Below, piece after piece: positions 8,165 to 56,090 of a stretch of 64,000 nucleotides of DNA (position 1 is its first letter; every line of letters starts with the position of its first letter). The position numbers and the translations under genes are program-made. The stretch lies in contig OX597814.1 in assembly GCA_951406725.2 (NCBI GenBank), positions 43,710,001 through 43,774,000 on the forward strand. Reading direction: 5' to 3'. The DNA is from Octopus vulgaris. Its lineage: Eukaryota. The notes under the pieces were generated by a model. The model was not told the DNA's origin and did no database searches. It saw nothing but the letters and a program-made list of their open reading frames with translations.

Positions 8165-9272
8165 ATGAAGAGAGGAGTGTTGAGCCCATGTGACGTAAAG
8201 GAGCGACGAAAGAAGATTAATTTATGTTCACGTCGAAGACGGGAGTCTAGATGACCTCTGTGAAAAAACAGTTCGAACACAGAATTTGTAGTAAATGAAG
8301 AGTAGAGCAGTGATGAGGCGAGACCTAGGTGTCTTTGCCGAGATGGATTTCTCTGAGGTGCTCTGCCAACCGGTCAACCAAGCAGCGCCTAGTTTGACCA
8401 ATGTACAGACAAGAGCAGAAAGACTAAGTGATGCAGTAAATGAAGTGCAGGTAAAGGAGTCTGTGATGTGATAGAGACGATGATGGGTGCCTATGCGGAT
8501 GGTGGTGTTAGAGAGGTAGGGCCAAATAAGGCAGCGTGGGCGGGAGCAAGGGAACGAGCCAGTTTGGGAGGTGGGCTTAGCAAAGAGACTGTGGTCCAGA
8601 AGGTCCTGCAGGTTGTGGGCTCGTTTGAAGGAGGAAAGTGGTTGGTTGGAGAAGATGTGCGAGATGGTGGGGTCGGACTTGTGTTGCGGAAGGCTCGGAG
8701 ATTGGAGCGTTTGAGGGTGTTGTGGAAGGGTGGTAGGTGACGGGAAAACGCAAGATGGGAAATGGCTGTGCAGGTGCGGGAAGAAAGAGCAGAAGCACGC
8801 CCCACGAAACATGCCCTGGCAAGGGTAGTATGGGTATTGGTGAGGGGATATCGATGAAGGATGAAGTGGTGAGCCATGAGTTGAAACTGAGTCTCAATGC
8901 TATGTGTGTCACCGTAGAGCTTGGGGATGGAGAGCTTGGTGCTAAATAGAGTGGGAAACGGAGAATTTAATGCAGGAGTGCGAGTCTGTGTGTTTGTAGT
9001 GGATGGAGGTAGTGAGACCGGAGGATGCATACTGACAGACATGTCTAAAAGTGCGACGGAAGAGTTAGAAATAGGGCAGGAGAATTCGAGGGCAGGATGG
9101 AATGATTGGGCAAAAGAGTGGAATGAGTTTAGTTATCCACGGGATAGTGAGGTTGCACCGATACAGTCATCGATATAACGACCTTATAGTTCGGCAGTGG
9201 TACCAGTGAATCGTGAGAACATTTGGGGCTCAAAGTATCCAAAGAACTGATTCGCATAGTTGGGGCTCATAT
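8165..9272 (-). mobile_element. Penelope-like retroelement, 5'-truncated (RT C-terminal half plus GIY-YIG endonuclease)
   Basis: Minus strand gives PNYAN.F.GYFE, GRYIDDCIG, FHPALEFS, CSRPRC..., YHITDSFTCTS, CLYIGQT.R.L.DRLAEHLR and REHKLIF...HGLN, with several frameshifts. Confidence 0.9.
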
Positions 9273-9329
9273 TCGTTATACAGTTACAAAAGAAAATGGA
9301 GATAAGGTAGTTAACAACAATTTATTAAG

Positions 9330-13724: not shown

Positions 13725-14033
13725 CTTGCACACATTACCTTATTTGGATCGCCACCACTATTATTATCTCCCTTATATTCAACCTCTCTTTATTATTACC
13801 TTCTTTTCATTCACTCTCTTTTTTCCAATGATACACCACGTTGGACCGCTGAACTCTACACGTTTTTTTCTCATTCTTTCTTTCTATTTATCTTATCTTA
13901 TTCGTTTCAGTCGAACAACGTAGGCTCGAAATGTAAAAGACTCTTCCATTTTTCCCGAGCATCAAATTTGCTTGTTGTTCCTACACTCGTCGTCGGCTTT
14001 TTTATTATTCTTTTTTTTTTTTTGATAAATTTG

Positions 14034-18416: not shown

Positions 18417-18452
18417 AGTCAAAATTGAACGAAGAGTGCCATTGTTATCGAA

Positions 18453-18493
18453 TGAACGATATTTCGACATCTTGTGTGTCTTCAACTGGTTCA
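18453..18493 (-). ncRNA. Minimal hammerhead-like motif with variant core
   Basis: Minus strand reads tgaac-CAGTTGA-a-gaca-cacaaga-tgtc-GAAA-TA-TC-gttca. Stem I is a perfect 5 bp, stem II is 4 bp, stem III is the palindrome ATAT, and the site is AUC. Confidence 0.6.
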
Positions 18494-18527
18494 AAAAATA
18501 AATTTGTCAATCCACTTCCTTTTGGTT

Positions 18528-18703
18528 AATATGGAAAGGATTGAGGTAAATCTTCCTGAAGATATAGAGTCAAAATTCAAAGAAGAGTGCCATTGTTATC
18601 TAGTGAACGATATCGAAATATCGTTCACTAGATAACAATGGCACTCTTCTTTGAATTTTGACTCTATATCTTCAGGAAGATTTACCTCAATCCTTTCCAT
18701 ATT
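18528..18703. repeat. Perfect inverted repeat: 86-bp arms, 4-nt loop (cgaa)
   Basis: 18528-18613 is the exact reverse complement of 18618-18703. Confidence 0.95.
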
Positions 18704-36420: not shown

Positions 36421-37079
36421 GCCACAATCCGGAACTTCGGCGAAATTCGTCATTTCAACATTTCAAATAAAATTTTCACATAGTACGGTGCTTTAGTATT
36501 TTAATATTCATACTTATATTTTACTTATCTGCTTGTGTGGTACATGTCCAACTGTACTTCGCAAATATGAGTAAGGCTAAATTAAATGCGGCATTTTCAG
36601 ACATTGTATACAGGTTCCCACTTTATTTGGAATATTTTATATCATTTCACAAATAATCCTCCTTAATATTGCAAACTGCAGGTTTCATTATTTGTGAAAT
36701 ATATTGCACATATGTTTCTATAAATATTGTTATATTTCCGATTTCCATTACGAAGCCGCAGCAATAAAGCTTCAATGAATGTATAATGCCATTAATTTGA
36801 CATATTTCATAATATAATATGGCGAATCCTGGTGAATGTTGATTCCCCTTCTCATATAATATATCCAATGCCTGAAATGGGTGGAACATAAAGAGTGGAT
36901 GTCTGTGTGGGCGTACATGCTCTGCATGCATTATAAACACACGAAAATAGTGAACAAAATTTCAATGCTCAAATGGTTCATATATTATTATTCTACTCCA
37001 ACAAACTCCAAAAGCAAAATGAAATAGGTCGGTAGCCACTATACAGAATATGTTTCTCTCCTTGTTTCTTTCTGTGTTC

Positions 37080-37115
37080 CTTTCTGTGGAAGAGCGTAGG
37101 CTCGAAACGTAAAAG
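37080..37115 (+). ncRNA. Minimal hammerhead-like motif (core CUGUGGA) in a solo PLE terminus (about 37050-37195)
   Basis: cttt-CTGTGGA-a-gagc-gtag-gctc-GAAA-CG-TA-aaag. All stems are intact, stem III is the palindrome ACGT and the site is GUA; only A6 deviates. Confidence 0.7.
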
Positions 37116-37208
37116 ACGTATTCAATTCCCGAGCGTTATACTAATACATCTGTTTGTTCTCTACACCACCTGTCTTCGTGAATTCTCCCTACATATATAC
37201 ATATATAC

Positions 37209-37264
<56 letters not shown>

Positions 37265-55974: not shown

Positions 55975-56090
55975 TTTCTCAATCTCTCTATTTATTTTAT
56001 TCCTCTATGTCGAAGAGCGTAGGCTCGAAACGAAAGATTTTCACTTTTCCAGAGCGTCAAACTGATACACCTGTTTGTTTTTCATACATA
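55975..56090 (+). mobile_element. Solo PLE terminus with damaged hammerhead-like motif (56002-56036)
   Basis: ATGTCGA-a-gagc-gtag-gctc-GAAA-CG-aaag (site dinucleotide missing), then gagcgtcaaact.atac as in the 37080 copy. Confidence 0.6.

Follow-up and report, generated by a model that had tools for sequence, protein, structure and literature searches.

The window, the whole stretch of 64,000 nt of Octopus vulgaris DNA that we analysed, contains at positions 37080-37115 a hammerhead-like motif whose core carries U instead of A at position 6 (U6). The motif lies in a short copy of a Neptune-like Penelope-like element (PLE), and decayed copies of the same family, as well as a motif of a second family, occur elsewhere in the window:

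37080..37083, plus strand: stem I, 5' strand (CTTT)
37084..37090, plus strand: core C3 U4 G5 U6 G7 G8 A9 (CTGTGGA), with U6 at 37087
37091, plus strand: extra nucleotide (A) between A9 and G10.1
37092..37103, plus strand: stem II hairpin (GAGC-GTAG-GCTC), 4 bp, with G10.1-C11.1 and a tetraloop
37104..37111, plus strand: G12 A13 A14 (GAAA), palindromic stem III half (ACGT, 37107-37110) and A17 (37111)
37112..37115, plus strand: stem I, 3' strand (AAAG)
37116..37190, plus strand: pseudo-LTR 3' tail, with conserved blocks at 37128-37135 and about 37166-37180
37020..37190, ends approximate, plus strand: 5'-truncated Neptune-like Penelope copy of ~170 nt, pseudo-LTR only, from the family alignment
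37191..37261, no strand: (TA)n microsatellite, the insertion site; same junction in other family copies
13904..13939, plus strand: an older family member, decayed, that retains U6, with U4A and a disrupted stem II
56003..56036, plus strand: a decayed family member retaining U6, with C3A and the U16-H17 letters lost
18453..18493, minus strand: hammerhead motif of the second family (151-nt tandem unit), C3 A4 G5 U6 U7 G8 A9, with U6 at 18485
18420..18700, no strand: second-family insertion, a partial tandem plus an inverted truncated copy beside a (TAA)n run; mapped to 18700

The layout that the first-pass annotation had given for 37080-37115, with its stems, core, extra A, GAAA and ACGT palindrome, matches the sequence letter for letter. 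By the hammerhead rule, the predicted cut falls between 37111 and 37112. The annotation had also claimed U6 in same-family copies at 13908 and 56007, and it is present in both, which are otherwise decayed; the U claimed at position 6 of an unrelated motif at 18453-18493 is found on the minus strand, in a different sequence with different stems. A relaxed hammerhead descriptor run over the whole window returned intact motifs only at 37084 and 18488.

An 18-mer comprising stem II and GAAACG has three matches with up to three mismatches in the window (0.00 expected). Across the 2.8-Gb genome it has 19,535 perfect matches, where the reversed control has 0. The motif is therefore not a chance occurrence. 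No hammerhead family of Rfam was found in the best 150 of 208 matches. Folding of the monomer is no better than that of shuffled sequences (z -0.55), so that the support for the motif is comparative rather than thermodynamic. At 37128-37135, ~17-25 nt beyond the cut, lies a conserved CYGAGC block that an A6 sister family described below also has. It might pair instead with the 3' strand of stem II plus G12, to which it is complementary, giving an inactive alternative. At 8173-9276 on the minus strand, the window also holds a degraded fragment of the reverse transcriptase (RT) and endonuclease (EN) of another PLE, 52-70% identical to the protein of the family; no hammerhead was found downstream of it.

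The element carrying the motif

Most copies of the family are short, ending ~105 nt beyond the motif, where they meet a (TA)n run. In long copies, the region upstream of the motif contains a Penelope ORF with RT, linker and GIY-YIG domains. It is a single ORF of 968 aa from the first Met, with a Pfam RVT_1 match above the cut-off (E 8e-8) and, at its C terminus, a GIY-YIG domain just under the Pfam cut-off (E 4e-4), which is preceded by a C-X4-C-X2-C linker. A CX2-5CxxC linker between RT and EN is described as a feature of Neptune, shared with Nematis (PMC8557442). Pseudo-LTRs, 5' truncation and microsatellite targets are all present in the family, and in 9 of 20 loci picked for long ORFs the motif occurs in both pseudo-LTRs, 4,180-4,573 nt apart around the ORF. 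The PLE link that had been inferred earlier is thus borne out by the domains upstream of the motif and by its presence in both pseudo-LTRs. We assign the element provisionally as a Neptune-like PLE, a label that follows from its layout and microsatellite target as compared with the published description of Neptune (PMC8557442). Seven copies are 98.1-99.3% identical to the copy L185 over ~2.3 kb, indicating that the U6 lineage was recently active.

In six of nine copies, the nearest match of each pseudo-LTR is its partner in the same insertion, with which it shares private variants; one copy gives a tie and two fail. A chimeric full-length copy, L184 (G000:C2:77.21 Mb), has pseudo-LTRs of different subfamilies with 62 differences between them, which suggests a template switch between two RNAs. 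Several independent internal-deletion derivatives were also found (L507 at G000:C8:18.60 Mb, L510 at C2:121.32 Mb, and L490, L491, L494, L511 and L539). In the deletion derivatives the 5' UTR/ORF is joined to nearly one point ~97 nt upstream of the cut, and two of them are arrayed: deletion units of ~492 nt (four junction matches) and of 468 nt form head-to-tail arrays inside single insertions. These arrays are retrozyme-like units arising from the autonomous element. At G000:C6:117391930-117400897, three junction matches ~4,470 nt apart mark full-length units arranged in tandem.

Fixation of U6 in the family

Among copies of the genome in which the rest of the core is intact, 15,954 read CUGUNGA (U6) and 184 read CUGANGA (A6). 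The first 90 matches listed for the stem II 18-mer yielded 89 distinct copies, positions 3-9 playing no part in the choice. Position 6 is U in 87 of these listed copies, A in one and C in one, while position 7 is U in 33, C in 24, A in 21 and G in 11, and position 17 is A in 70, U in 17 and G in two. U6 was likewise found in 36/36 family copies located through the element protein and in 18/18 hammerheads of nine full-length copies. The earlier view that U6 is fixed rather than a product of random decay is upheld by its presence in young full-length and protein-selected copies, and random decay of old copies can be dismissed as its source since the young full-length copies all have U6. As to whether young copies might show the canonical CUGANGA, they do not: they read CUGUUGA.

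On a core-masked tree, 30 A6 copies are scattered among U6 copies of all subfamilies and share the N7 of their neighbours, as expected if A6 arose by mutation after insertion. The tree requires 22 changes for them, at least eight of which are forced by starred branches. A hidden A6 master subfamily is rejected, the A6 copies being scattered mutants among U6 subfamilies; a few A6 copies near the base of the tree possibly represent an old A6 subfamily. In contigs from four separate runs of four organisms, N7 and H17 are variable but no variant of position 6 reaches 5%, which disposes of an assembly artefact as the origin of U6.

A scan of metagenomes for U6 motifs recovered at least 119 stretches, five of them with both stems against 0.37 expected. 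Two of the five, L275 and L353, match the motif of Acropora Neptune, and in both the U6 arm is paired with an inverted A6 arm in the same locus. The A6 of the inverted twin marks them as sporadic U6 mutants. Two of the remaining three stretches with both stems are one element. A fixed U6 outside this animal group was not retained as a candidate, only sporadic U6 mutants having been established among the at least 119 metagenome stretches. L275 and L353, together with L314 and L266, are PLE-type minimal hammerheads in metagenome assemblies and probably derive from animal host DNA.

Conservation of the motif

In the 89 copies chosen by stem II, the core positions C3, U4, G5, G8 and A9 are each conserved in 85-89, N7 is four-way variable, the extra A after A9 is present in 88, and H17 is A or U in 87; the NUH site, GAAA, palindromic stem III and a stem I in the range of 3-5 bp are present. 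Stem II (GAGC/GCTC) is intact in 29/36 protein-selected copies. N7 tracks the flank tree and the subfamilies, with 19 changes compared with 46.3 after shuffling (0/200). On this poorly resolved tree, each of C3, U4, G5, U6, G8, A9, the extra A and U16.1 has between 0 and 4 changes, which are scattered. Only N7 and the cleavage-site base vary between subfamilies, as in a hammerhead under selection, and U6 behaves like a conserved position, unlike the free positions N7 and H17. No covariation was seen in the main family.

We compared the 16 stem I/core columns that are not fixed by the search pattern with the flanks. A second allele at 15% or more occurs in 0/16 of these columns and in 32/110 flank columns (Fisher p 0.006; p 0.02 with the 80 downstream flank columns alone). 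With the threshold lowered to 10%, it occurs in 1/16 stem I/core columns (p 0.01 against all flanks, 0.058 against the downstream ones). The comparison bears on the possibility that U6 is a neutral inactivating change that hitchhiked in one master copy and that the motif is now without function. A single master lineage can spread any change to thousands of copies, and the tree of the family is ladder-like. The allele comparison already weakens this explanation, however. Widespread change in the flanks along the ladder was not matched in the core and stem I, where only the two positions at which hammerheads vary freely were affected, and a second family bears the same letter at position 6. We regard neutral hitchhiking as very improbable.

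An A6 sister family and the direction of change

The same genome contains 19,092 matches to the canonical A6 pattern, compared with 97 for the control. A sister family (4,488 exact copies) has stem II and the downstream block in common with the U6 family and keeps A6 in 97/100 among the matches listed. The outer pair of stem I is C-G in one and G-C in the other when the U6 family and its A6 sister are set in that order. A6 is also the state of the Acropora Neptune motif and of all 56 motifs in Fig. S3 of PMC4209133, where the descriptor requires it, so that a change from A6 to U is the likely direction; A6 is likely ancestral and U6 derived. Most of the first 100 canonical-A6 matches listed belong to another, very abundant family of canonical A6 minimal hammerheads (L095-L122), often found as inverted pairs at (TAA)n runs.

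A second U6 family with a 151-nt tandem unit

The motif at 18453-18493 belongs to a non-coding unit of 151 nt that occurs singly, in inverted pairs and adjoining (TAA)n runs. In one array the unit is repeated 21 times at intervals of 151 nt, each repeat carrying a single type I motif. The sequence of the family is not meaningfully similar to that of the Neptune-like element (best E 1.2). U6 is present in 97/100 among the matches listed of 187, 16 of these rows coming from one array, and a subfamily of the unit also carries U4A (20/30). One stem II pair passes from G-C through G-U to A-U, with both sides changed in 5/15 distinct rows; covariation at this one pair is reached by 11/500 shuffles. 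The loci of the family contain no match to a PLE ORF, and a search for an autonomous partner at these loci found none. Two independent origins of U6 are likely, and an ancient shared origin in both families is possible.

Copies of the 151-nt unit frequently adjoin pieces of another non-LTR retrotransposon close to (TAA)n runs, as at L064, L079, L083, L089, L205 and L206; the association is most simply read as a shared target. Descriptions of non-LTR retrozymes give them non-coding monomers of 150-450 nt in tandem, each of which holds one type I motif (PMC7229834; bioRxiv 10.64898/2026.07.22.740005). The second family resembles the metazoan non-LTR retrozymes of PMC7229834 in being a non-coding tandem unit with one type I motif each. 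It departs from their description in having a minimal and not a canonical hammerhead, with U6 and often A4. In contigs of runs presumed to be RNA, joints between its units would look alike whether they came from circular RNA or from tandem DNA.

Start points of family copies

Cutting has left no trace in the start points of the family copies examined. We found no start at the predicted cut among 77 distinct young copies holding the junction of pseudo-LTR and 5' UTR, a set in which two rows are not anchored. Five of the junction-bearing young copies begin 3' of the cut, the nearest 4 nt off and with unmatched first letters. There was also no start at the cut among 50 tail-anchored copies read by eye (30 consecutive and 20 picked without the exact motif). 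Instead, starts gather around one site that lies ~95 nt upstream of the cut: 50/119 motif-bearing copies have their first letter no more than 10 nt from it, and the 5' end of the copy at 37020..37190 falls in this main cluster. The cluster (about window 37020-37030) lies at a conserved CGCCATG, which in the young subfamilies presumably matches the consensus of a YY1 site. The site is likely the 5' end of the RNA, from an internal transcription start in the pseudo-LTR. Copies starting there imply that their templates held an uncut motif. The upstream starts do not single out U6, however: in the A6 sister, too, starts cluster at one place, ~75-80 nt upstream of the core as read by eye, and an anole PLE with an active, protein-dependent hammerhead is reported to have no RNA ends at its cut (PMC11167929).

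Published rates and the activity of the U6 core

Complete mutagenesis found all single changes of CUGA low in activity, except for the C3-G8 swap (PMC9901934). With A6C, the rate of one ribozyme at 0.3 mM Mg was 3.6e-6 per min in place of 0.3, a loss of some five orders of magnitude (PMC7151607), and a natural A6C ribozyme stays below 0.1 per min (PMC3088659), although natural C6 hammerheads do cut at slow but measurable rates (PMC3088659, PMC7151607). Canonical minimal PLE hammerheads are themselves already slow in vitro, and their monomers are not expected to cut (PMC4209133). The anole PLE hammerhead cuts only with the protein of the element, and its cutting is dispensable for insertion in vitro (PMC11167929).

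It is conceivable, though we consider it improbable, that the U6 core is fully active owing to a compensating contact, the geometry of a dimer or another metal ion such as Mn. Position 6 has kept U specifically while N7 passed through at least four states, and it is U in two unrelated families; Mn, moreover, rescues A6C (PMC7151607). Against this, the core shows no visible compensating change when compared with the A6 sister family, and even canonical minimal PLE hammerheads are slow in vitro.

Another explanation, which we hold to be unlikely but worth serious attention, is that the motif no longer cuts and that its fold is kept for binding of the protein or for placing the start of reverse transcription ~105 nt downstream. 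Loss of activity on published changes at position 6 (PMC9901934, PMC7151607), the absence of copies starting at the cut, the addition of U4A to U6 in a second family that went on spreading, and in vitro insertion of the anole PLE without cutting (PMC11167929) are all in keeping with a dead fold. C3, G5, G8, G12 and the A16-type pair have nevertheless stayed fixed, and H17 has avoided G, through many subfamily changes. Nor do absent ends at the cut separate active from dead motifs, given the active anole element (PMC11167929) and the similar A6 sister.

A proposed weakened ribozyme acting as a dimer

The reading we prefer, in which we place about as much trust as doubt, is that the motif is a ribozyme weakened by U6, cutting only as a dimer and probably only together with the protein of the element. 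Two motifs would pair through the ACGU palindrome, and the dimer would cut slowly, likely helped by the protein. Occasional cutting at both pseudo-LTRs would free a unit-length RNA, which would close into a circle that is copied round more than once; the majority of templates would remain uncut. The matching pairs of pseudo-LTRs and the arrays of deletion units agree with a template that was circular or used repeatedly, but unequal crossing-over or template jumps may also have produced both. The low published rates at position 6, the lack of copies starting at the cut and the continued spread of the second family with U4A argue against activity.

More tentatively, and with rather less than even confidence, we propose that U6 may be a functional natural core reached independently by a Penelope element and by an unrelated retrozyme-like repeat. 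Protein or dimer would replace the role of A6, gating cutting to the particle of the element.

Relation to known hammerheads

The minimal hammerheads of PLEs are known to have an extra nucleotide after A9 and a palindromic stem III, for which a dimer model has been published (Cervera and de la Pena 2014, PMC4209133). The octopus motif resembles these metazoan minimal type I hammerheads in its location in both pseudo-LTRs, the extra nucleotide, G10.1-C11.1, the palindromic stem III and the short stem I. The motif of Acropora Neptune (Fig. S3 of PMC4209133) has nearly the same layout, with a 4-bp stem II, a tetraloop and ACGU. Unlike the 56 motifs of that figure, which all have A6 by descriptor requirement, the family described here has U6 fixed. 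The only core change reported among the motifs in the accessible text of PMC4209133 is U3-A8. A6 being a defining position, we file the motif as a variant derived from the PLE minimal hammerhead rather than as a plain member. This also qualifies the earlier suggestion of an undescribed system: a variant with an altered core stands, whereas an undescribed system does not, the extra A and the palindrome being already known (PMC4209133).

A natural change at position 6 is shared with the hammerhead of phage Bcep176 (PMC3088659, PMC7151607). There the letter is C and not U, at a single phage locus with measured activity (slow in Mg, better in Mn), whereas the change here occurs in a high-copy eukaryotic retroelement. 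Like the anole Poseidon PAc (PMC11167929), the family has a motif in a PLE pseudo-LTR, copies ending internally downstream of the motif, and no ends at the cut. PAc differs in belonging to another clade and in having its cleavage shown in vitro, and the accessible part of that report mentions no change at position 6. Small PLE-linked hammerhead variants of Lunse et al. (cited in PMC6765202) are similar in their short stem III, dimer cleavage and association with PLEs. In the literature covered, which leaves the survey of Lunse et al., file 1 of PMC4209133 and the bioRxiv supplements outside its scope, we found no natural A6U hammerhead family.

The role of PLE hammerheads, and whether they need to cut, is treated as an open question in the accessible literature (PMC8557442, PMC11167929). 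In the octopus genome the two states come naturally matched, a U6 lineage that includes young full-length copies being accompanied by an A6 sister whose stem II is the same. Should U6 cut, nature would have a working substitute at a position that mutagenesis deems essential, and ~16,000 motifs of this one genome would escape current descriptors. If U6 is functional, position 6 would not be invariant in the hammerheads of retroelements, and searches bound to CUGANGA would miss whole active families. If U6 does not cut, an autonomous element has spread while conserving the fold of a dead ribozyme, which would imply a non-catalytic job for that fold.
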